DNA from: an uncultured Acidimicrobiales bacterium
Lineage (GTDB): Bacteria > Actinomycetota > Acidimicrobiia > Acidimicrobiales > SHLQ01
Direction: 5' to 3'
Assembly: GCA_964390555.1 (NCBI GenBank)
Contig: CAYMJU010000032.1
Span: 30,563 to 94,562 of the forward strand
DNA: 64,000 nt
This document shows positions 567-61,474 of the stretch, one piece after another (positions within the stretch are counted from its first letter, which is position 1; every line of letters begins with the position of its first letter). Under the pieces are notes generated by a model, which saw only the letters and a program-made list of their open reading frames with translations, did not search any database and was not told where the DNA came from. Position numbers and translations under genes: made by a program.

Positions 567-2975
567 ATGCAACAAGAGCTGATCCCGTATGCCCGCGAGG
601 TCATCGACGTGCCCGTGGTCGACGAGCTGAGCGAGTCGTTCCTCGCCTACTCGCTATCGGTCATCACCTCACGGGCCATCCCCGACATCCGTGACGGCCT
701 CAAGCCGGTGCAGCGCCGGATCCTCTACTCGATGCTGCAGATGGGCCTGCGTCCCAACACACCCCATCGCAAGAGCGCGCGCGTGGTGGGCGACACCATG
801 GGCCGCTACCACCCCCACGGCGACTCGGCCATCTACGAGACGCTCGCGCGCATGGGCCAGGACTTCAGCCGCGCCATCACCCTCGTCGACCCGCAGGGCA
901 ACTTCGGCTCGCTCGACGACCCGCCGGCGGCGGCGCGCTACACCGAGTGCCGACTCACCGAGGCCGCCATGGAGCTGGTGCGCGAGCTCGACGAGGACAC
1001 CGTCGAGTTCCGCCCGACCTACGACGGCGACGGCGAGGAGCCCGTGTGCCTGCCGGCGTTGTTGCCGAACCTGCTCGTCAACGGCACCACCGGGATCGCG
1101 GTCGGCATGGCGACGAACATGCCCACGCACAACTTGGGCGAGGTCTACCGAGCGATCGAGTTGGTGCTCACCAAGCGCCGCCCGCGACCGACCATCGACG
1201 AGCTGCTCGCCGTCCTCCCGGGGCCCGACTTCCCCGGAGGCGGGATCATCATCGACGACGGGCTGGCCGAGGCCTACACGACCGGTCGCGGCTCGATCCG
1301 TATCCGGGCCCGGGCCGAGGTCGTCCATCTCGCACGCGGCCGCCAGGGGATCGTCATCACCGAATTGCCGTTTCAGGTCGGGCCCGAGCGGGTGATCGTC
1401 AAGATCAAAGAGCTCGTCGCCGACGGCCGGCTGCCCGGTGTGGCCGAGTTCCTCAACCTGTCCGACAAGTTGGGGCTACGGATCCAGGTCGAGTGCAAAC
1501 CGGGTGTCAATCCCCAGGCCCTGCTCGCCGAGCTCTACCGACTGACCCCGCTCGAAGAGACCTTCGGCATCAACAACGTCGTGCTCGTCGGCGGCGTGCC
1601 CACCACCGTCGGGCTCTACGAGCTGTGCCAGCACTACATCGACCACCGGCTCGAAGTGATCGTCCGGCGCAGCACCCACCGCCGGACCCGCGCCGAGTCG
1701 CGGCTCCACATCGTCGAGGGCCTGCTGATCGCCCTCGATGCCATCGACGAGGTGGTCGCGATCATCCGTTCCTCCCAGGACACCGGCCAGGCCCGGTCAC
1801 GCCTGATCGAACGGTTCGGCCTCTCCGAGATCCAGGCCACGCACATCCTCGACATGCCGTTGCGGCGGCTCACCGCGCTGGCGAAGCTCGAGCTCGACGA
1901 GGAGCGGGGCGAGTTGCAGCGGGCCATCGACGATTTCACCGCCCTGCTCGGGTCCGAGAACCGGCAGCGCAAGCTCGTCAGCACCGAGCTCAGCGAGCTC
2001 GTCACCAAGTACGGGCGACCGCGGCGCAGCCGTATCGTGGCCGCCGACGACGTGCTCGAGCTCGCCGGGCCGGTGCTCGCCCCCGCAGTCGAGGCGCCGC
2101 GGACCGACGAGGCGTGCGTGGTCACCCTGTCGGCGTCGGGCCAGGTGGGTCGGGTCCCCCTCGAAGGTTCCAAGCGCTCCGCCCCCGGCCGCCACGACCT
2201 GCTCGTCACATCGATCGTCACGTCGACCGGCAGCGAGTTGGCGGCTCTCACCACCGACGCCCGTGTGCTGCGGGCGACCGTCGGCGAGCTGGCCGAGGGC
2301 GACGGCCGCAGCCGGGGGTCAGTCGCGGCCCAGGTGTTCGGCACGACCAAGGGCGAATCGGTGCTCGCCGTCGTCGCCGACGGCTCCGAACCGATCGTGC
2401 TCGTCACCGCGGGCGGCATCGTCAAGCGCGTCACCGCGACCGAGGTCGCCGGGACCCGCTCCGGGCGTACCATCGCCGCGCGGCGCGACGGAGATCGTCT
2501 GGTCGCGGCCTTCGCCTGCCCCGAAGGGATCGACGTGATCCTGGTGTCGAGCGACGGTCAGGCGTTGCGCACCCCCTCCGATGGCATATCGGTCCAGGGT
2601 CGAAGCGCCGGCGGCGTCGCCGGCATGAGCCTGCGCGAAGGCGCTTCGGTCGTCGGCGCCGGGCCGGCGCTCGGTGACCCGATGGTCATCGCCATCGGCA
2701 GCCGAGGTACCGCCAAAGTGACCGAGGCGGCCGAGATCCCCGCCAAGGGCCGCGGCGCGCAAGGGGTGCGGCTCGCGCGCTTCGGCGACGGCGAGCGGGT
2801 CACCATGGCGTACGTCGGCGGTGCTGGTGGTCTGTGGGCGCTGATGGGCACCGATGACGACCCAACCAAGCCCGATCCCACGCCGGTGCCGTTCATGATG
2901 GCGGCCACGAAGCGGGATCTGGTTGCGGTGGCGACCGAACGCCAGGTCCTCGCCCTCGGCCCCGGGCGGTGGTGA
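567..2975 (+). CDS. parC: type IIA DNA topoisomerase subunit A, ParC-like (topoisomerase IV / second gyrase-like enzyme)
   Basis: 802 aa. N-terminus has [18 protein letters not shown] and [15 protein letters not shown]; the catalytic Tyr context is [11 protein letters not shown] could not find a GyrA-box (QRRGGKG) in the C-terminal domain, which favours ParC over GyrA. Confidence 0.85.
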
Positions 2976-5035
2976 GCGTGGCTACCAAGGCGCCATCGGG
3001 CGAGTACGGCGCCGACGCCATCCAGACCCTCGAAGGGCTCGAAGCGGTCCGCAAACGACCCGGCATGTACATCGGCGGCACCGGGTCGGCGGGCCTCATC
3101 CACCTCGTGTGGGAGATCATCGACAATGCCGTCGACGAGGCCTCGTCCGGTTTCTGCAACCGCATCGACGTGACGCTGCACCGCGACCGCTCGGTCGAAG
3201 TGTGCGACAACGGTCGCGGCATCCCCGTCGGCCTACACCCCAAGCACAAGGTCTCCGCGCTCGAGGTCGTGTTCACCGAGCTGCACGCCGGCGGCAAGTT
3301 CGGCGGCGGGGCCTACGGCGCGTCGGGCGGCCTGCACGGCGTCGGCGCTTCGGTCGTCAACGCCTTGTCGGCCCGGCTCGTCGCCGACGTCGACCGCGAC
3401 GGCCACACCCACCGGCTGGCGTTCAAGGACCGCCGCGCCGGCCGCGTCACCGACGGTCGCTTCAAGGCGACGCACGAGGTCGAGAAGGTCAAGCGCATCT
3501 CGCCCACCAAGACCGGCACCCGCGTGCGGTTCTGGCCCGACTGGGACATTTTCGATCCCGAGGCACGGATCGACTTCGACGAGATCTGCCAGCGCGCCAC
3601 CCGGTCGTGTTTCCTCGTCCCCGGGCTGCGCATCAAGGTTCAGGACAAGCGGGGCGACACCGACGGTGAGCCGTTCGAGTTCGTCTCCCGCGGCGGCCTG
3701 GCCGACCTCGTCGATCATCTGTCGATCGGCGAGCCCGTGACTCAGGTGATCCGGCTGAGCGGCGTCGAGACGTTCGAGGAGAAGGTTCCCGTCGATGGGA
3801 AGATGACCCTCGTCGAGCGCGAGTGCGCCGTCGACGTCGCCCTACGTTGGGTCAAGGGGTACGACTCGGCGGTGGTGTCGTTCGTGAACACCATCCCGAC
3901 CGGCGAGGGCGGCACCCACCTCGCCGGTTTCGACCGGGCGCTGCTTCGTTCCGTCAGCGACGTGTTGCTCAAGGACACCCGCAAGCTGGCCAAGCTCGCC
4001 AAGGAGCAAAAGGGCCGCGCGACGCGCGAGGACGTCAACGAGGGCCTCGTCGCCGCAGTGAAGGTCACGTTGCCCGAGCCACAGTTCCGGGGCCAGACCA
4101 AGCAGGAACTGGGCACCCCGGCGGTCGAGTCGATCGTGTACCGCATCCTCAAGGATGGCTTGACCGAGTGGATCAACCCGGGTGCCGGCGGCGGCCCGCG
4201 CAGCCACGTGAACGCCGTGCGCGACAAGATCGCGAACGCGATCATCAACCGGGTCGCCAGCAAGCAGGTGCTCGAGAACAAGCGCAAGATGGCCAAGCTC
4301 GGTTCGAGCGGCATGCCCGACAAGCTGGCCGACTGCCGGGTCCATGGGCCCAACGCCGAGCTGATCCTCGTCGAAGGCGACTCCGCCGCCGGCCCGGCCA
4401 AGCAGGGTCGAAACGCCGAGTTCATGGCCATCTTGCCGCTGCGGGGCAAGATCGTGAACGCCGGCAAGGCCAGCACCAAGCAGGTGCTCGACAACGTCGA
4501 GGCCCAGGCGCTGTTCACCGCCATGGGCGGCGGCTCGGGCAAGGACTTCAGCCTGTCCGACTGCCGCTACGGCCGGGTGATCATCTTGTGTGACGCCGAC
4601 GTCGACGGCAGCCACATCCGCTGCCTGCTGCTCACGCTCATGTACCACTACATGCGCCCGCTGCTCACCGCTGGCCGGGTGTTCGCCGCTATGCCACCGC
4701 TGTACACCACTCGCGTAGGCGACGACGTGTACCGGGCCTACTCCGACGCCGAGCGCGACCGCGTGACCGACGACCTGTGCAAGGGCAACCGCAAGCGCGA
4801 GAACATCCGCTGGAACCGATTCAAGGGCCTCGGCGAGATGAACGTCGACGAGCTGGCCCACTGCGCCCTCGACCCGGCCACCCGCACTCTCAAGCGCCTC
4901 ACCATCGAAGACGCCAAACAGGCGACCAGTGCCGCCGAGATGTTCGAGGTGCTGATGGGCAACGACGTCCCGGCCCGGCGCGACTTCCTCGTGCGCAACA
5001 GCGCCCTGTTCGACACCGCCACCCTCGACATCTAG
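2969..5035 (+). CDS. parE: type IIA DNA topoisomerase subunit B, ParE/GyrB family
   Basis: 688 aa. Has [16 protein letters not shown], a GHKL ATPase region ([13 protein letters not shown]), a Toprim region ([24 protein letters not shown]) and a C-terminal KGLGEMN. The start overlaps the parC stop (GTGGTGA at 2969-2975). Confidence 0.9.
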
Positions 5036-39763: not shown

Positions 39764-40279
39764 TCAGGCCGCGATCAGATCCAGAACCTCATCCTCGGGG
39801 ATCGCTCCTCGCCACGCCCCGAGGATCTCACCATCGGCCGCGAAGAGCGCCGCGGCTGGCTGCCCGGTGATGCCGAGCTGAGTCCACGACTCGAACGTCG
39901 CGTCCCAGTACATCGAGAGCGTCAGGTCGTGCCGATCGACGAACGCGATCGCGTCGTCGAGGTTGTCCTGGGTACCGAGTCCGATGACTCGGAGCTGGTC
40001 CGCGTTCTGTCGAGCGAACTGCTCGACGCCGGGGGCTTCCCCGTTGCACGCACTTCAGTGCGGGGCCCAGAACCACACGAGCAGCGGCTTGTCGGCCGGT
40101 AGCTGCGCCGCCAGCGACGCCGGCTCACCGGTGTGGAGATCGGCGACGTCGACCGCTGGCAACGGTGACCCCGATGACGCCTCGCTCGCCGTGTCGATCG
40201 CCGTCGGGCCAGCGCCGCCGCCGCAGGCGCCCATCGGCACCATGACGAGGGCGGCGACCGCCAGCAACCGTGAGCGCAT
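39764..40279 (-). CDS. TlpA/ResA-like thioredoxin-fold lipoprotein with in-frame TGA (predicted selenocysteine, UxxC motif)
   Basis: MRSRLLAVAALVMVPMGAC provides a lipobox. The sequence runs ...KPLLVWFWAPH-TGA-SACNGEAPGVEQFARQNADQLRVIGLGTQDNLDDAIAFVDRH...GITGQPAAALFAADGEILGAWRG. The TGA at 40055-40057 is codon 75 and aligns with the first Cys of FWAxWCxxC. The frame stays open with family-like sequence for 96 more codons to the stop at 39764. Confidence 0.75.
40026..40049 (-). promoter_or_regulatory. candidate bacterial SECIS hairpin downstream of the TlpA-like UGA
   Basis: mRNA: UGA-AGUGC-GUGC[AA]CGGGG-AAGC-CCCGGCGU. The stem has about 9 pairs (2 G-U), an AA bulge, and an apical loop containing G 19 nt after the UGA. 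Confidence 0.5.
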
Positions 40280-45416: not shown

Positions 45417-45483
45417 CAGACGGGTGACTCGCCGGTCAAATCCCGCCGGATTGGCTACATCGGCCCCGGCCTAGGCTCGGGGC

Positions 45484-47487
45484 ATGAGCACGCGGACGGT
45501 TCTCGGTACCTGCCACCACGATTGCCCGGACTCGTGCGGGTGGGTGGTCACCGTCGAAGGGGATCGGGCCGTGAAGCTGCGCGGCAACCCCGATCACCCG
45601 TACTCCCTGGGCGAGTTGTGCCCCAAGGTCAACCGGTTCCTCGACCGGGTCTACGCCGACGACCGACTCCTTCACCCCCTCGTCCGCAGTGGCCCCAAAG
45701 GCACGGGCGAGTTCCGGACGGTGACGTGGGCCGAGGCGACCGCGCTGGTCGCGGAGCGGGTGGGCGCCGTCATCGCCGAGCACGGCGGCGAGGCCGTGCT
45801 GCCATGGTGGGATGCCGGCACGCAGGGGCTGATCCAGATGTCCAGCCTGGACCGGCGCTTCTTCGCCCAGCTCGGCGCATCTCGGCTCACCGGCTCGATC
45901 TGCGGAGCGACCGCTGGAGCCGGCACCGCCGCGACCTACGGAACCGGCCGCACCGCCGACCCACTCGACGTGGTGCACGCCGAGGTGGTGATCCTGTGGG
46001 GCACCAACACGCGGCTGACCAACCGGCACCTCTGGCCCTTCGTTGAACAGGCCCGGGCCAACGGGGCGCAGGTCGTCGTCATCGACCCGATGCGCACCGT
46101 CACCGCCGAGTCGGCCGATTGGTTCATCCAACCGCGGCCCGGCACCGACGTGGCTCTGATGCTCGCGATCATGCATGTGCTCGTCCGCGACGACCTGGTC
46201 GACCACCGCTACGTCGATGACCACGCCACCGGATACGAGGACCTGGCGGACCGCGTCGCCGACTGGACGCCCGAGCGCGCCGCGGCCGAAACCGGAATCG
46301 GGGCCGACGAGATCGAACGCCTGGCCCGGCTGTATGGCTCGACCAAGCGCACGTTCATCCGCACCCTGATCGGGGCCGAGCACCACGCCAACGGCGCCAT
46401 GTTCTTCCGCACCCTCGCGTGCCTACCGGTGCTCACCGGAGCGTGGACCGTCCTCGGCGGGGGCCTGGCCCGCTCGACCGGCATCTGGTCCGAGGCCCAC
46501 ACCGACAGCTCGGTGTTCGACCCCGTCGACCGACCGGCGACCCGGGCGATCAACATGAACCACCTCGGGCGAGCGCTCACCGACCCGTCGATCGGCATCC
46601 ACGCCCTGTTCGTGTGGTGCGCCAACCCATTGGTTTCGGTCCCCAACTCGACGCAGGTCCGGGCCGGCCTCGAGCGTGACGACCTGTTCTGCGTGGTGTC
46701 AGAGCAGTTCCTCACCGACACCGCCCGCTACGCCGACGTGGTGTTCCCGGCCACCACCCAGATCGAGCAGGTCGACGTGATCCCTTCGTGGGGGTCGATG
46801 CACATGGGATGGAACGAAGCGGCGATCGCCCCGCTAGGCGAGGCGGTGCCCAACACCGAACTGTGGCGGCGACTGGCGCGGGCGTTCGGGATGAGCGACC
46901 CGCTGTTCGATCTCGACGACGAGGCCCTGATCCAGCTGGCGATCAGGGGCCACGACGTTGCCGAGTTCCGCACGCAGGGGTGGCTGGAGCATGACCTCGT
47001 CCGCCCCCACCTCCCATACGCACATGGAGGATTCGCCACTGCTGACGGCCGGGCTCAGCTCCGCGCCGACGGGCTCTCCGGCATCGGCGCCGATCCTCTG
47101 CCCGTCTACCAGGCCCCACCCGCGCCCACCGCCGAGCATCCACTGGTTCTGTTGTCGCCCAAGACCCACGCGCGATTCCTCAACTCCACCTATTCACACC
47201 ACCACGGCCCTCTCGAAAGCGGTCCCTACGTCGAGCTCGACCCCGCCGATGCGGCCGAGCGGGACATCGCCGAGGGCGACCCGGTCCGGATCCACAACGA
47301 CCGAGCAAGCCTCACGCTCCCGGCCCGGTTCACCGGCCGAGTGCGCCCCGGCGTCGTCGCGGTGCCGTGGGCGTGGTGGGGCGAGGTCGCCAACGTCAAC
47401 GCCCTCACCGACGACACCCTCACCGAGTGGGGCGGCGGCGTCGGCTACTCCGACACCCTGGTGCAGGTCTCCCCCGTCATACGCTGA
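45484..47487 (+). CDS. molybdopterin (bis-MGD) oxidoreductase, MopB superfamily
   Basis: The N-terminal 4Fe-4S motif is CHHDCPDSCGW...C. MGD-binding blocks and a C-terminal beta-barrel (GDPVRIHNDRASL) are present. The candidate Mo-ligand residue is Cys (GSICGAT), not TGA. Confidence 0.85.
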   Translation: MSTRTVLGTCHHDCPDSCGWVVTVEGDRAVKLRGNPDHPYSLGELCPKVNRFLDRVYADDRLLHPLVRSGPKGTGEFRTVTWAEATALVAERVGAVIAEHGGEAVLPWWDAGTQGLIQMSSLDRRFFAQLGASRLTGSICGATAGAGTAATYGTGRTADPLDVVHAEVVILWGTNTRLTNRHLWPFVEQARANGAQVVVIDPMRTVTAESADWFIQPRPGTDVALMLAIMHVLVRDDLVDHRYVDDHATGYEDLADRVADWTPERAAAETGIGADEIERLARLYGSTKRTFIRTLIGAEHHANGAMFFRTLACLPVLTGAWTVLGGGLARSTGIWSEAHTDSSVFDPVDRPATRAINMNHLGRALTDPSIGIHALFVWCANPLVSVPNSTQVRAGLERDDLFCVVSEQFLTDTARYADVVFPATTQIEQVDVIPSWGSMHMGWNEAAIAPLGEAVPNTELWRRLARAFGMSDPLFDLDDEALIQLAIRGHDVAEFRTQGWLEHDLVRPHLPYAHGGFATADGRAQLRADGLSGIGADPLPVYQAPPAPTAEHPLVLLSPKTHARFLNSTYSHHHGPLESGPYVELDPADAAERDIAEGDPVRIHNDRASLTLPARFTGRVRPGVVAVPWAWWGEVANVNALTDDTLTEWGGGVGYSDTLVQVSPVIR

Positions 47488-55949: not shown

Positions 55950-57617
55950 ATGGATCGTCTCCCCCCAATGAATCGCCGCCAGTTCCTCGCTGCGACCATC
56001 GCCGCCGCGATCGCCGCCGCGTGCAGCGACGACGACGACACGTCGTCCGGTCAGTCGACCACCTCGGGCCCCGGCGAGAGCACCACGACCGCGACACCCG
56101 ACACCACGACGACCGCGTCTGAACCGGCCGTCGAGCTCCCGGGCGATCCCTTCTACCTCGGTGTGGCGTCGGGCGACCCGACCGCCGAGTCGGTGATCCT
56201 GTGGACCCGGCTCGCCTATCCGCCCGCCGACGGGATCGGGCTTCCGGGCGCGGACATCCCCGTCGACTGGGAAGTCGCCAGCGACGACGCGTTCGGCACC
56301 GTCGTCGCGAGCGGCACCGCGGCTGCGACCGCGGCGCTCGGCTACTCGCTCCACGTCGATGCGACCGGGCTCGAACCCGACGGCACGTACTTCTACCGCT
56401 TCGCGACCGCCGGCTACACCAGCCCGGTCGGCCGCACCCGCACGTTCGCGGCTGCGGGGTCGTCGCCCGATCAGTTCCGCTTCGCGGTCTCGTCGTGCCA
56501 GAACTGGCAGGCCGGCCACTACGCGGCGTGGCGCGATGTCGCCACGCTCGAAGAGCTCGACGCCGTCGTGTTCCTCGGCGACTACATCTACGAGTACGCC
56601 GACGGGGCCTACGAGCAAGACGGCGGCCGGCCGCTCGACGGCTCGGCCGAGGTCGCCAGCCTCGACGACTACCGGGCCCGCTACGCCTTCTACAAGACCG
56701 ACACCAACCTCCAGGCCGCGCACGCCGCCGCACCGTGGATCGTCACCTGGGACGACCACGAGGTCGACAACGACTACGCCGGCGACATCAGCGAGGAGAA
56801 CACGCCCGTCGAGGACTTCCGGGCCCGCCGCGCCGCCGCCTACCAAGCCTGGTATGAGCACATGCCGGTCCGCCTCGACGCCCCCGACGGCCCCGATTGG
56901 CCGATCTACCGAGCGGTATCGAGCGGTGACCTGGTGAGCTTCTACGTGCTCGACACGCGCCAGTACCGCAGCGACCAGCCGAGCGAAGGCGCCACGCTCG
57001 ACATTCCGGCCGTCGGCGACGCGGTGCGCCAGATCGACCCGGCGACCCTCACCGACCAATCGATGCTCGGCGACGATCAGGAAGCGTGGCTCGTCGATGC
57101 CGCATCGTCGTCGGGGTCGGCCTGGAACGTGCTCGCCCAGCAGGTGTTCATGTTCGGGGCCAGCGTCTTGCCGGGCCAGTCACCACCGTATGTCGTGGTG
57201 GATACCTGGGACGGCTATTCGGTGGCCCGGCGGCGGTTGTTCGAATCGCTCACCGCGAACGCGGTGCCGAACATCGTGGTGCTCACCGGCGACTTCCACT
57301 CCGGTGCCGTCGCCGACGTGCGGCTCGACCCGTTCGACCCGGCCGGCGCCGCCGTGGCGACCGAGTTCATGGCGCCGTCGATCTCGTCGGGCTTCTTCGA
57401 CGGCGCCGAGGACCTGGCCGGCGCGGCCCTGGCCGCCAACACGCAGGTGAAGTTTTTCACGGCGCGCAACGGCTACACGCTGTGCACCGTGACCGCCGAT
57501 ACCTGGACCAGCGAGTACCGCGCCGTCGCCGACCGTGGTGACCCCGACTCCCCCGTTGAGACCATCTCGACCTGGGAAGTCACCGCCGGCACCCCCGGCG
57601 CGGTAGAGGTGGTGTAG
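55950..57617 (+). CDS. phoD: alkaline phosphatase D family (PhoD), Tat-lipoprotein
   Basis: The twin-arginine signal NRRQFLAATIAAAIAAAC also contains a lipobox Cys. PhoD blocks are FYLGVASGDP, VFLGDYIYEY, WDDHEVDNDY and VLTGDFH. Confidence 0.9.
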   Translation: MDRLPPMNRRQFLAATIAAAIAAACSDDDDTSSGQSTTSGPGESTTTATPDTTTTASEPAVELPGDPFYLGVASGDPTAESVILWTRLAYPPADGIGLPGADIPVDWEVASDDAFGTVVASGTAAATAALGYSLHVDATGLEPDGTYFYRFATAGYTSPVGRTRTFAAAGSSPDQFRFAVSSCQNWQAGHYAAWRDVATLEELDAVVFLGDYIYEYADGAYEQDGGRPLDGSAEVASLDDYRARYAFYKTDTNLQAAHAAAPWIVTWDDHEVDNDYAGDISEENTPVEDFRARRAAAYQAWYEHMPVRLDAPDGPDWPIYRAVSSGDLVSFYVLDTRQYRSDQPSEGATLDIPAVGDAVRQIDPATLTDQSMLGDDQEAWLVDAASSSGSAWNVLAQQVFMFGASVLPGQSPPYVVVDTWDGYSVARRRLFESLTANAVPNIVVLTGDFHSGAVADVRLDPFDPAGAAVATEFMAPSISSGFFDGAEDLAGAALAANTQVKFFTARNGYTLCTVTADTWTSEYRAVADRGDPDSPVETISTWEVTAGTPGAVEVV

Positions 57618-57692
57618 ACCTCGGAGACGTCGGGACGCGACCGGGTGTCAGACGGCTTCGCCGTGGTTGCGCCGAGATCAGCGGCGCCCCGT

Positions 57693-58565
57693 CTATGTGC
57701 CGGGTTCCTCGGCGAGGTGGGCGAGGAGGAGCTCGTTGAAGCGGTCGGGGACGAGCTCTTGGACCCAGTGGTCGACGTCGTCGATCACCTCGAGACGGTA
57801 TGGGCCCTCGACGCATCGGCCCGTCGCCTCGGCACCGTCACGGCCGAGGGCCGGGTCGTCGGTGCTCCACACGTGCAGGGTGCGACACGTGACGGGGCCG
57901 AGGCCGTCGAACATCTCGGGTAGCGAGGCTCGGTACCAGCTCACGGTCGCCCGCATGGCCTCGACCGAGCCGAGGGTGGCGAGGTAGCGGTCGAGCTCGT
58001 CGCCGGTCACGTTGGCTGCGTCGGCGATGCGCCGGAGCAACGCGCAGTCGTCGGCCACGAAGTCGTTCTCGGAGCCCGGAGTTCGGAACCAGTCGAAGTA
58101 CGACGACCGCTCGCGCTGGTCACCGAACTCGCACGCGTGGAGATAGGCCCAGGGGTGGGGCACCGAGACGGCGGTCCAGGTGAGCAACCGGTCGCTGTGG
58201 CGACACGCCACCTGCCACCCGACCACGCAGCCGAAGTCGTGCCCGACGAGGTGGAACCGGTCGGCCCCGAGCGCGTCGGCGACGCCCAGGGTGTCTCGCA
58301 CCAGTGCCGACTGCCGGTAGGCGAGCTCGTCGTGGGGCCGAGCGCCCGGCGAGTAGCCGCGCTGGTCGACGGCCACCGCCCGGTAGCCCGCGGCAGCGAG
58401 GGCCGGCACCTGGTGGCGCCAGCTCCGGCGGGTCTGCGGGAACCCGTGGAGCAACAACACGAGCGGCCCGTCGGCCGGGCCAGATGCGGTGGCGTCGAAC
58501 ACGAGCCGCCCGACCTCGGGGTCGTCGAGCACGATCTCGATGTCCTCTACGGCGATGTCGGTCAC
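57693..58565 (-). CDS. alpha/beta hydrolase (epoxide hydrolase / haloalkane dehalogenase-like)
   Basis: Has LLLHGFPQTRRSWRHQ and the nucleophile elbow LVGHDFG. GTG 58565 overlaps the HAD stop (GTGA). Confidence 0.8.
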   Translation of the reverse strand: MTDIAVEDIEIVLDDPEVGRLVFDATASGPADGPLVLLLHGFPQTRRSWRHQVPALAAAGYRAVAVDQRGYSPGARPHDELAYRQSALVRDTLGVADALGADRFHLVGHDFGCVVGWQVACRHSDRLLTWTAVSVPHPWAYLHACEFGDQRERSSYFDWFRTPGSENDFVADDCALLRRIADAANVTGDELDRYLATLGSVEAMRATVSWYRASLPEMFDGLGPVTCRTLHVWSTDDPALGRDGAEATGRCVEGPYRLEVIDDVDHWVQELVPDRFNELLLAHLAEEPGT

Positions 58566-59164
58566 GCGGTCAGACCCCTGGCCGCGAGCTCGGCCCGTAG
58601 AAGAGTCGCTTCGGTGAACAAGAGGCTGTCGAACCCGAGCGCCGCGGCGGCGTCGATGTTGGCGACGGAGTCGTCGACGAACACCGCGTCGCCAGGCCGG
58701 AAGCCGTAGCGCCCGCACAAGAGCTCGTAGATGGCGGGCTCCGGTTTGACCACGCCCTCGAAGCCCGAGATCACCATGCCCTCGAACCAGTCGAGGAACG
58801 GGTAGCGGTTCCGGATCATGGCGAAGGTGTCACGACCCCAGTTCGACAGCGCGAAGCACCGGTGGCCCGCGGCAACCAACTCGCCCAGCAGCTCGACGAC
58901 ATCGTCGAGTGCGGGACCCAACGTGTCGGTCCAGCGTGTCTCGAACGCCTCGAACGCGTGCTGGTACTGCGGGTACCGGCGGGTGAGGTCGGCCGCGACG
59001 TGACCCAGCTCGACGCCGCGGTCGAGGACCGCGTTCTCGTCGAGCGTGTAGATGTGGTCGAGGAAGTGGTCGAGCTCGCCGGGGTCGTGGATGACCCGCT
59101 CGAACAGTCGCCGGCGATCCCACGGGATCAACACGTTGCCGAGGTCGAACACCACGACACCCAT
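58562..59164 (-). CDS. HAD-IA family hydrolase
   Basis: Motif I is VVFDLGNVL, motif II is ALSNW and motif III/IV is KPEP...VFVDDS. ATG overlaps the selD stop (ATGA). Confidence 0.85.
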   Translation of the reverse strand: MGVVVFDLGNVLIPWDRRRLFERVIHDPGELDHFLDHIYTLDENAVLDRGVELGHVAADLTRRYPQYQHAFEAFETRWTDTLGPALDDVVELLGELVAAGHRCFALSNWGRDTFAMIRNRYPFLDWFEGMVISGFEGVVKPEPAIYELLCGRYGFRPGDAVFVDDSVANIDAAAALGFDSLLFTEATLLRAELAARGLTA

Positions 59165-60198
59165 CAGCGCAACATCATCCTTCCGGAGCCCGGACCCTCG
59201 ACCCGGCCGACCGCCGCCGCCGCATGTCCGGTGCGGCCGAGCTCGGCGAGCACCTCGGCCGCCCGATCGGCGTCGACACCGAACACCAGACCACCGGAGG
59301 TCTGGGCATCAGCGAGCAAGGTCACGGTCAGCTCGTCGATGGCCCCCCGCTCGAGTCGGGCCTCGACGGCCGCGAGGTTGCGGGCCGACCCGCCGGGCAC
59401 GAACCCGGCCGCCGCCAGCTCGCGGGCGCCGGGGAGCAGCGGCACCGCGGCGGCGTCGAGCGCGACATCGACGGCGGACTCGACCGCCATCCGGCCGAGG
59501 TGGCCAAGAAGCCCGAACCCGGTCACGTCGGTCGCGCCCGTCGCGCCGGCGGCGAGCGCTACCGCGCTCGCCACATCGTTGAGACGGGTCATCGACGCCA
59601 CCGCAGCGTCGACCGAATCGCTGGAAGCCTTGCCGCGTTTGATCGCGGTGGCGATAACACCGATGCCGAGCGGCTTGGTGAGCACGAGCACCTGACCGGC
59701 CCGGAGACCGGCGTTGGTCAACAGCCGATCGGGGTGGACCTCGCCGACCACGGCCATGCCGTACTTCGGTTCGGGATCATCGACGGTGTGGCCGCCGGCG
59801 ATGACGAACCCGGCTTCGGCGGCGATCGAGGCTCCACCTTCGAGGACATCGCCCAGCAGATCGGTCGAGAGCTCGTCGTTGTTCCAGCACACGAGGTTCA
59901 ACGCCAGCAGCGGCCGGCCGCCCATGGCGTACACGTCGCTCACCGAGTTGGCTGCGGCGATCCGGCCCCACGTGCGCGCGTCGTCAACGAGCGGTGTGAT
60001 GAAGTCGGCGGTGACCACCAGGGCGCGCGAGTCGTCGAGCCGCCAGACGGCGGCATCGTCGCCGGTGTCCGAACCGACCAGCAGATCGGGGTGCGGAGAG
60101 GCGGGTTGGAGGCGGCGCACGACCTGCGCCAGCGCATCAGGCGCCAGCTTGCAGGCTCAGCCCGCGCCGTGGCTGTACTGGGTGAGTCGACGAGTCAC
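59164..60198 (-). CDS. selD: selenide, water dikinase (selenophosphate synthetase) with in-frame TGA = selenocysteine
   Basis: GTG 60198 has the SD GGGGGAGG 7-9 nt upstream. The translation is VTRRLTQYSHGAG-TGA-ACKLAPDALAQVV..PDLLVGSDTGDDAAV...TADFITPLVDD...GRIAAANSVSDVYAMGG. It is collinear with the E. coli SelD LTQYSHGAGCGCKI region, with TGA (60157-60159, codon 14) at the Cys17 position. The track only shows the truncated 59164-60120 ORF. Confidence 0.9.
60122..60156 (-). promoter_or_regulatory. candidate SECIS hairpin immediately downstream of the selD UGA
   Basis: mRNA: UGA-GCCUGC[AA]GCUGGCGC-CUGAU-GCGCUGGCGCAGGU. The stem has about 14 pairs (several G-U), an AA bulge and a G-containing apical loop about 19 nt after the UGA. 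Confidence 0.55.
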
Positions 60199-60223
60199 TC
60201 GAATTCACCTCCCCCTCTACCTA

Positions 60224-60282
60224 CTGGCGGCTCGCTTCGAGAAGCTCGCCCGTGGTGTCACTTGCTGGCGGCTCGCTCCGAG
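60224..60282. repeat. two 18-bp direct repeats in the selD upstream region
   Basis: CTGGCGGCTCGCTTCGAG (60224-60241) and CTGGCGGCTCGCTCCGAG (60265-60282) match at 17 of 18 positions. Their starts are 41 bp apart. They lie between the amidohydrolase stop and the selD SD. Confidence 0.6.
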
Positions 60283-60289
60283 CGTCGGG

Positions 60290-61474
60290 CTAGGCAACCC
60301 GCGAGGTGAGCGCCAGACCGTTGTCTCGCATGATCAACTTGATGTCGGCGTCGGAGAAGCCGTCGAGATCGTGCACGAACGACAAGGGATCGGCGAGACC
60401 CTCGGCGTGGGGGAAATCGGAGCCGAACAGCATGTGGTCGGCGCCGATCATCTCGGCCAGGGCCGGGAGGTCGTCCTCGTAGTACGGCGACACCCAGATC
60501 GCTCGCCGGAACGTGTCGATCGGATCCTCCGCGAAGGCGTAGGCGTGCTGGCCATACGTCTTCTTCAGCTTCTTGAACAGCGGACCGACCCATTCCGAGC
60601 CGGTCTCGATCGTGGCGACACGGATGTTGCGGTGCGTGGTGAGCACGTGCTCGCCGATGAGCGACGCCATGGCATCGGCGATCGGCGACAACGTGAGCAG
60701 CGACTTGAGGGGGTTGAACCGGAACGACTCGAATTCGGTCGGCAGCCCCCAGTGCTCGTAGATGAACGAGTAGCCGGCGTCGCCGGAGTGGATGGCGAGG
60801 GTGATGCCCGACGCGTCGAGCGCCTTCCAGAACTTCTCGTGGGCGGGGTGGCCGAGCGACCGGCGACCGCCCGCTCCGTCGGGCACCGACGAGGCGCGGA
60901 TGTTGACGACGCGCACGTCGCGCTCGATCGCCCAGCTCAGCTCGTCGAGGGCCCAGTCGGGATCGGCGAGGGTGATGTACGGCGCGGCGAAGATCCGGTT
61001 CTGGTGGGCCATCCCCCAGTCGTCGTCGAGCCACCGGTTGAACGCCGAGAACGCGGCCAGCATCGCCGGCACGTCGTGCTCGAGCGACGACTCCATACCG
61101 ACGCCGAGCGTCGGGAACATGAAGCACCCGTCGATTCCTTGCCCGTCCATCATCTCCAGCCGGGCATCGCGGTTGCGGTACGCCGCCGGTATCGCGACCA
61201 ACTCGCCGAACGCGGCCCGCATGTCCGGTGCCGATTCCTTGGCTCGGAAGTAGGCGTCGAGGCTGCCGGGCCGGGCTACCGGATCGAACGTCGGGTTCGG
61301 GATGAACCGGTTGACCTTGCCGCCGACCAGCAGGCGCTGCTTGCCGTCGATGGTCGCCCACTGCATGGCCCGCTTCGCCATCTTGGGGTCGATGTGGCGG
61401 GTGAACGCGTCTTCGGCCTCGTAGTAGTGGTTGTCGGCGTCGAAGGCCTGATACCCGAGATCGGTCATGCGCAC
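60290..61474 (-). CDS. amidohydrolase-2 family protein (paralogue of 54671-55876)
   Basis: Starts MRMTDLGYQAFDADNHYYE and carries the RFIPNPTF and FGSDFPHAEG motifs. Confidence 0.8.
   Translation of the reverse strand: MRMTDLGYQAFDADNHYYEAEDAFTRHIDPKMAKRAMQWATIDGKQRLLVGGKVNRFIPNPTFDPVARPGSLDAYFRAKESAPDMRAAFGELVAIPAAYRNRDARLEMMDGQGIDGCFMFPTLGVGMESSLEHDVPAMLAAFSAFNRWLDDDWGMAHQNRIFAAPYITLADPDWALDELSWAIERDVRVVNIRASSVPDGAGGRRSLGHPAHEKFWKALDASGITLAIHSGDAGYSFIYEHWGLPTEFESFRFNPLKSLLTLSPIADAMASLIGEHVLTTHRNIRVATIETGSEWVGPLFKKLKKTYGQHAYAFAEDPIDTFRRAIWVSPYYEDDLPALAEMIGADHMLFGSDFPHAEGLADPLSFVHDLDGFSDADIKLIMRDNGLALTSRVA

Follow-up and report, generated by a model that had tools for sequence, protein, structure and literature searches.

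Here, we analyse the selD gene on the minus strand of a 64,000-nucleotide (nt) stretch of DNA from an uncultured Acidimicrobiales bacterium (contig CAYMJU010000032.1, positions 30,563 to 94,562), which as a whole is called the window in the following. Taking all evidence together, the gene very probably encodes a full-length selenide, water dikinase (SelD) of the selenocysteine (Sec) type, in which an in-frame UGA at the catalytic position is recoded via two adjacent hairpins in the coding sequence, hairpin 1 (hp1) and hairpin 2 (hp2), with hp2 as the likely core for SelB binding. The gene was pointed out in an earlier note made from the letters and a list of open reading frames (ORFs), and its claims are taken up where our results bear on them. 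Coordinates are collected in Table 1; positions within RNA hairpins are counted from the U of the UGA.

On the minus strand, the gene starts with GTG(60198) ACT CGT CGA CTC ACC CAG TAC AGC CAC GGC GCG GGC TGA(60159-60157) GCC TGC AAG, which translates to VTRRLTQYSHGAG-U-ACKLAPDALAQVV, U denoting Sec. This TGA is the sole interruption of the frame between 60198 and 59164. Behind it, the frame runs into the ORF of the program-made track (59164-60120), which takes the internal GTG at 60120 as its start and encodes 318 aa. Since a further in-frame TGA closes the frame upstream (Table 1), GTG 60198 is the sole standard start (GTG, ATG or TTG) before the Sec codon. It is preceded by a Shine-Dalgarno-like sequence, whereas no GGAGG-like sequence lies within the 18 nt 5' of GTG 60120. 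Several homologues that begin with MTRRLT back the start at 60198. The 318-codon ORF is what remains of the gene once the UGA is taken as a stop; it is an artefact of annotation, and the gene itself is of an ordinary type.

For the profile searches, Cys was put in place of the UGA in the 344-residue product. TIGR00476, the NCBIfam equivalog model of SelD, matches with 379.3 bits at a cut-off of 125 and aligns its positions 1-310 (of 311) to residues 4-312. The score excludes chance for the protein match, and from the extent of the alignment, the short segment upstream of the UGA belongs to the family model. NF002098 scores 371.4 bits (cut-off 299), the PurM-like domains AIRS (PF00586) and AIRS_C (PF02769) are recorded, and weaker profile matches lead to ThiL, HypE and PurM relatives. 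Among solved structures, E. coli SelD (3u0o) is the best match (E = 8.5e-80, residues 7-344 aligned). RLTQYSHGAG-U-ACK is thereby placed on E. coli RLTQYSHGAGCGCK, so that the UGA takes the position of Cys17 and Lys17 of our product that of Lys20 of E. coli SelD. The N-terminal glycine-rich loop, SHGAG-(C/U)-x-C-K, is present as SHGAG-U-ACK, compared to SHGAGCGCK in E. coli. By profile and alignment, the gene is assigned as full-length selD, and ATP-dependent synthesis of selenophosphate from selenide is its predicted activity.

Relatives were collected in a genome scan (one genome per species) and a metagenome scan, each of which gives at least 80 selD loci; all counts of loci in the following hold among the matches listed. 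Among the matches listed, the closest sequences in both scans show 72-74% identity, and the best relatives in the genome scan are metagenome-assembled genomes (MAGs) of Ilumatobacteraceae and other Acidimicrobiales, 65-74% identical. At the homologous codon, TGA is found in 54 of 80 loci of the genome scan, the other 26 carrying TGC or TGT, and in 57 of 80 loci of the metagenome scan (23 with Cys codons). Pooled, 111 of 160 loci have TGA and 49 have TGC or TGT. Every TGA locus keeps RLTxFSHGAG upstream of the codon, with xCKL on the other side. As far as sequences can tell, this alternation is the classical signature of a Sec/Cys pair. Furthermore, the Logan assembly of run SRR9952630, which possibly stems from the same sample, is identical to window positions 56751-61045 (4295 nt), TGA included. 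There is thus a strong case, drawn from sequence comparison, that the catalytic residue of the N-terminal loop is a selenocysteine encoded by UGA 60159-60157 and that this organism decodes Sec.

The Sec machinery exists in the Ilumatobacteraceae, because one of their MAGs (L017) carries selA (2539-3696) and selB (3719-4843) directly after a Sec-type selD (993-2009). Two loci with a Cys-type selD have a tRNA-SeC gene beside it, at 731-826 in L037 and at 2631-2725 in L048, the latter with selD, selA and selB in a row. These relatives speak indirectly for such machinery in the organism of the window as well. The earlier note had named the gene as selD, had considered it truncated in the ORF track, had set the start at GTG 60198 behind a Shine-Dalgarno sequence, and had seen the TGA at the catalytic Cys/Sec position of the glycine-rich loop. 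All of this is borne out by the profile scores, the alignment with Cys17, the frame and start site, and the codons of the relatives.

In Sec-type relatives, the sequence 3' of the UGA forms hp1 (nt 11-18 paired with nt 22-29) and hp2 (nt 30-36 with nt 40-46). Over 52 distinct Sec-type sequences this tandem structure is 92.7% paired, and nine of its 15 pairs, in 64 cells, show changes in both partners. Not one of 500 shuffles matches this signal, slid controls are 30-42% paired, and an unguided RNAalifold prediction arrives at the same two hairpins. The helix of hp2 is 95% paired, with both-side changes in four of its seven pairs. Cys-type relatives, in contrast, are 57% paired, a value reached by 72 of 500 shuffles, and give no signal. 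On average, Sec-type sequences form 7.25 of eight pairs in hp1 and 6.7 of seven in hp2 at a fold energy of -22.2 kcal/mol, compared to 4.9, 3.7 and -14.7 kcal/mol in the Cys type. Shared ancestry alone does not explain this contrast, because the Cys-type genes of L037, L038 and L042 are nearer to the window gene and lack the structure, whereas the more distant Sec-type genes of Gemmatimonadales keep both hairpins. Synonymous sites are frozen in the Sec-type set only; column 42, for instance, is G in all 95 Sec-type sequences versus 24 of 47 Cys-type ones. G37 and U38 are invariant in the 95 distinct Sec-type sequences, and the loop of hp2 in the relatives reads C-GUC-G with the closing base pair formed, at a spacing of 33 nt from the UGA.

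Three Cys-type selD genes with TGC or TGT (L047, L076, and L123 from the metagenome scan) have both hairpins nearly intact, L123 with 8/8 and 7/7 pairs. They look like recent Sec-to-Cys conversions that still carry a relic selenocysteine insertion sequence (SECIS).

In the window itself, six of the seven family pairs of hp2 are possible and, in the family register, four of the eight pairs of hp1. Owing to a local change from LAPGEL to LAPDAL, a variant seen in none of the 111 TGA-carrying relatives, a new hairpin arises, shifted by 3 nt on its 3' side, which takes the 5' arm of hp2 into its lower stem. This long hairpin (60156-60122), with about 14 pairs, an AA bulge and the loop CUGAU, had been described in the earlier note. 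We recover it as the minimum-energy fold when the 48 nt that start at the UGA are folded (6 + 8 = 14 pairs, -22.4 kcal/mol), with pair probabilities of ~0.98 in free RNA. Its upper part sits at the place of the family hp1, though with its 3' side in a register displaced by 3 nt. Fold energy alone is too weak as evidence in a sequence of ~69-70% G+C, since the z-scores against dinucleotide shuffles are -0.31 (48 nt) and -1.93 (56 nt); a control stretch inside the gene gives -0.18. On an ungapped alignment of 55 Sec-type sequences, the long hairpin is 69% paired with weak covariation, which rules it out as a conserved family structure.

The bacterial SECIS consensus of bSECISearch (Zhang and Gladyshev 2005, taken from PMC13188914) asks for a loop of 3-9 nt on a stem of 4-16 bp, a spacing of 16-37 nt, an energy of -7.5 kcal/mol or lower, and a G at loop position one or two, with G or U as the usual next base. 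Hairpin 2 of the window agrees on all four counts: it has a 5-nt loop on a 6-bp stem, GG followed by U in the loop, a distance of 32 nt from the UGA, and an energy of -11.5 kcal/mol. The long hairpin agrees in size (5-nt loop on an 8-bp stem), spacing (16 nt) and energy (-22.4 kcal/mol), but in its loop CUGAU the G comes third and is followed by A. As it is not conserved, has an unexceptional energy and departs from the loop-G rule, it is probably not the SelB-binding element. The earlier note had taken it as an internal reference SECIS and had proposed to model 60122-60156, a range that omits the 3' arm of hp2. This part needs correction, and the reference should be moved to, or extended over, 60130-60114, where hp2 fits the consensus.

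With the UGA in the A site, the first nucleotides after it lie inside the ribosomal mRNA channel; this is established ribosome geometry, which we apply to the present case by inference. The position of the UGA and its adjoining bases in the channel was mimicked by removing nucleotides from the 5' end of the folded sequence. Removal of 6 to 14 nt raises the probability of hp2 from 0.01-0.02 to 0.66-0.97. We propose the following mechanism. As in other bacteria, SelB with Sec-tRNA(Sec) would bind an mRNA hairpin just 3' of the UGA and thereby supply the A site with Sec. For the SelD lineage at hand, which includes Acidimicrobiales and Gemmatimonadales among others, the signal for recoding would consist of two adjacent hairpins, hp1 at about nt 11-29 and hp2 at nt 30-46, with G37-U38 in a loop of 3-5 nt. 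In the window, hp1 would be remodelled such that, in free mRNA, it and the 5' arm of hp2 form one long hairpin. A ribosome over the first nucleotides after the UGA would block the lower stem, and hp2 with its loop GGUCG is predicted to take over. Judged from these folds, hp2 is the best candidate and most likely the SelB-binding SECIS core, and hp1 or its remodelled form most likely acts as a structural spacer or pause element.

The window holds a second gene of interest, which encodes a TlpA/DsbE-like thioredoxin-fold lipoprotein (hereafter TlpA-like). The DNA of nine relatives has a TGA at the same codon as the window gene, and a protein search returns many TlpA-like fragments of ~96 aa with MCRAEAPGVEQFAR as their start; they stem from Sec-type genes truncated at the UGA. 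In the single-sequence fold of the window gene, an AA bulge and a loop G occur as in the long hairpin of selD, which is what the earlier note had stated. More telling as a common feature is a downstream hp2 with GU in its loop. From nt 31 to 47 this hp2 is identical in all ten Sec-type sequences, the G+C-poor third positions of GCU and CGA included, and nt 48 differs in one of them; hp1 varies among them in sequence and register. Cys-type homologues vary in this part of the protein (MVAFAE, MKEFAE and VKRFAD versus VEQFAR in the Sec type). It is from the frozen synonymous sites, together with this contrast to the Cys-type proteins, that hp2 of the TlpA-like gene would draw its support. Although selD and the TlpA-like gene are unrelated, they agree in their layout, in which a variable hairpin precedes a fixed one with GU in its loop.

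Several points weigh against our interpretation. ARAGORN finds no tRNA, and hence no tRNA-Sec, in the 64-kb window, and neither selA nor selB was found there with Pfam on 39 ORFs and the TlpA-like protein or with tblastn using the verified SelA and SelB of L048 and L037. With regard to the earlier note, which held that the organism is established as a Sec decoder, the decoding stands as a strong inference, and the word established goes too far for a window that carries none of these genes. The free RNA favours the long hairpin over the tandem form by 4.2 kcal/mol and leaves hp2 at a probability of ~0.01. With 32-33 nt from the UGA, the loop of hp2 is near the upper limit of the allowed 16-37 nt. 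The fdhF loop of E. coli (sequence taken from NC_000913.3) begins 18 nt after the UGA, compared to 32 nt for hp2 of the window, so SelB may bind at the position of hp1 instead. G37-U38 is also part of a Val codon, and its invariance is thus partly a protein constraint. The hp2 of the TlpA-like gene shows no covariation, because its helix never varies. Finally, Rfam gives no SECIS match, neither in the whole window at gathering thresholds nor in 59900-60300 at E <= 10, where matches stay at chance level. We take this silence as a coverage limit of the library for bacterial SECIS in coding regions and not as evidence against the element.

The most substantial competitor concerns the structure. 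The long hairpin at 60156-60122 could itself be the functional SECIS, the lineage having switched from a tandem to a nested form as in proteobacterial selD. It is, after all, the fold that free RNA strongly favours, and its loop, at nt 20-24, has a place similar to that of the E. coli fdhF loop (nt 22-25). Three of the four consensus features are present, hp1 of the TlpA-like gene shows a similar AA bulge and has G as its nt 22, and SelD SECIS elements of nested form have been described for proteobacteria (PMC4561486). We nevertheless consider this unlikely. The weak pairing across the 55 Sec-type sequences and the absence of the variant from all 111 TGA relatives leave the long hairpin without conservation, and its loop has the G in third place before an A. 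Moreover, nt 4-9, on which the lower stem depends, lie within the ribosome while the UGA occupies the A site, and without them the ensemble moves to hp2, which is intact in the window with six of seven pairs.

Two further explanations do without selenocysteine. If the TGA were a true stop, the gene would either yield a 318-residue protein from the internal GTG 60120 or be a decaying pseudogene. Gene callers do give the 318-residue version, for the ORF track as well as for the Logan contig, and no Sec machinery was seen in the 64-kb window. Such a product, however, would lack the glycine-rich loop with the catalytic Sec/Cys and Lys, which the family profile covers. At the protein level, the 111 TGA loci conserve the 13 codons that precede the TGA, the Shine-Dalgarno sequence stands before GTG 60198 and not before GTG 60120, and the remainder of the gene, which is intact, reaches the score of a full equivalog; together, these points render a true stop very improbable. 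Just as little speaks for a UGA read as Cys or Trp, be it through near-cognate decoding or through a variant code, or for a sequencing error in place of TGC. A TlpA-like homologue from JGI (P0034) does have W at the position aligned with U, reading WAPW-W-TICRREAPDVEQFAR, where the TGA was probably rendered as Trp by the gene caller of the source. But other genes of the window end normally in TGA, selD and the TlpA-like gene among them, and an in-frame TGA with good coding signal on both sides is rare: a coding-potential scan gives two candidates, of which one is at a catalytic Cys (TlpA-like), and selD has the other such TGA. The hairpins 3' of the TGA are specific to Sec-type sequences, the second assembly is identical, 111 relatives have the TGA as well, and selA and selB adjoin a Sec-type selD in L017. 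Only an outside chance is left for these decoding or error scenarios.

Beyond the Sec-type SelD with tandem hairpins, a more general picture can be put forward tentatively, with doubt slightly ahead of belief. Acidimicrobiia and their SelD relatives may use a two-part SECIS, in which a spacer hairpin of free sequence and register is followed by an fdhF-like GU-loop hairpin ~32-34 nt after the UGA. This design would be common to the unrelated selD and TlpA-like genes and would work as a conformational switch in the selD of the window. If this is true, SelB of this lineage acts at about twice the UGA-to-loop distance of E. coli, and hp1 is a required architectural or pausing element.

Table 1. 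Features of the selD and TlpA-like loci (positions within the 64,000-nt window)
Feature	Position	Strand	Remarks
selD coding sequence, full length	59164..60198	minus	GTG start, predicted Sec (U) at codon 14, 344 codons + stop; from translation, profiles and alignment
Shine-Dalgarno-like GGGGGAGG	60215-60208	minus	9 nt 5' of GTG 60198; seen directly in the sequence
In-frame TGA closing the frame upstream of GTG 60198	60207-60205	minus	from translation
UGA, putative selenocysteine codon (codon 14)	60159-60157	minus	aligned with Cys17 of E. coli SelD
Long hairpin	60122..60156	minus	nt 4-38 from the U of the UGA; lower stem, AA bulge, 8-bp upper stem, loop CUGAU
Conserved hairpin 2 (hp2)	60114..60130	minus	nt 30-46, GGCGCA-GGUCG-UGCGCC
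Stop TGA of selD	59166-59164	minus
HAD-family hydrolase gene	58562..59164	minus	downstream of selD; ATG overlaps the selD stop (TGATG, 59162-59166)
TlpA/DsbE-like thioredoxin-fold lipoprotein gene	39764-40279	minus	lipobox PMGAC; TGA 40057-40055 in motif WAPH-U-SAC
hp1 of the TlpA-like gene	40043-40030	minus
hp2 of the TlpA-like gene	40027-40009	minus	GUCGAGC-AGUUC-GCUCGAC, nt 31-49, GU at nt 39-40, 34 nt from the UGA

Downstream of selD, the ATG of a HAD-family hydrolase gene overlaps the selD stop, and because of this overlap both genes are probably co-transcribed and translationally coupled. An alpha/beta hydrolase gene (57693-58565) comes after the HAD gene, which makes a selD-HAD-hydrolase operon probable. 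The order selD-HAD is matched in L081. Among the compared loci, no selenium-related neighbour of selD is conserved, and a HAD gene follows selD in two other loci only (L030 and L091).

A few side observations concern the remainder of the window. No selU-like gene was seen in the window scans. A molybdopterin oxidoreductase gene (45475-47484, plus strand) has formate dehydrogenase alpha as its best NCBIfam match, with 244 bits at a cut-off of 666 bits; it contains no in-frame TGA and is therefore not a Sec-type FdhA. Rfam reports one borderline match to Ms_AS-1, a Mycobacterium small RNA, at 61290-61366 on the plus strand (37.6 bits, gathering threshold 37), in antisense to an amidohydrolase gene (60290-61474).

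For annotation, the proper entry for selD is a selenoprotein of 344 residues, with codon 14 marked as a translation exception; the 318-residue fragment lacks the active-site loop. Together with the TlpA-like UxxC gene at 40057, selD marks this Acidimicrobiales-like organism as a putative user of selenocysteine, so that Sec should be considered for any in-frame TGA at a catalytic Cys elsewhere in the genome. That SelD needs its own product for its synthesis is known from selenium metabolism as a self-reinforcing loop. The present addition is modest: a SECIS of covarying tandem hairpins for the selD genes of this lineage and a concrete candidate for the SelB-binding hairpin. A tandem SECIS model could sharpen the prediction of selenoproteins in Actinomycetota of high G+C content, in which fold energy by itself is not informative.

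SelD with a UGA-encoded catalytic Sec is common and well documented in bacteria, and SelD is the second most widespread bacterial selenoprotein. A survey of more than 5200 genomes counted 394 SelD selenoproteins in 383 organisms (PMC5029168). Compared to the known Sec-containing SelD/SPS2 proteins (PMC1794560, PMC5029168, PMC4561486), the present gene belongs to the same family, has Sec at the Cys17 position, and carries hairpins in the coding region 3' of the UGA. Sec-type and Cys-type orthologues alternate among related lineages in those systems and likewise here. There is no difference in kind. Bacterial SECIS elements in Sec-type selD have been modelled by Mariotti et al. 2015 for Clostridiales, Campylobacter, Deltaproteobacteria and Pasteurellales; in their description (PMC4561486, Supplement S6), the stems are nested in the proteobacterial elements, and in those of Clostridiales stem2 is not nested but lies downstream of stem1 and fits the bacterial SECIS model by itself. 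By this description, the clostridial element follows a tandem logic like that of the window, in another phylum. The accessible parts of PMC1794560, PMC5029168 and PMC4561486 contain no SECIS model for actinobacterial selD. A tandem layout is thus not new in principle, and the addition here is its covariation support in the selD genes of Acidimicrobiales and Gemmatimonadales, along with the remodelling specific to the lineage of the window.

At the level of the hairpin itself, there is a likeness to E. coli fdhF. The fdhF apex GCA-GGUC-UGC is nearly repeated by that of hp2 in the window, GCA-GGUCG-UGC, with a loop one nt longer, and both lie in coding sequence 3' of the UGA. They differ in their setting: in fdhF one long hairpin follows right after the UGA and its loop starts at nt 22, whereas in the window a separate hairpin comes before and the GGUC loop starts at nt 36. 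The bacterial SECIS consensus has no place for such an obligatory upstream hp1.

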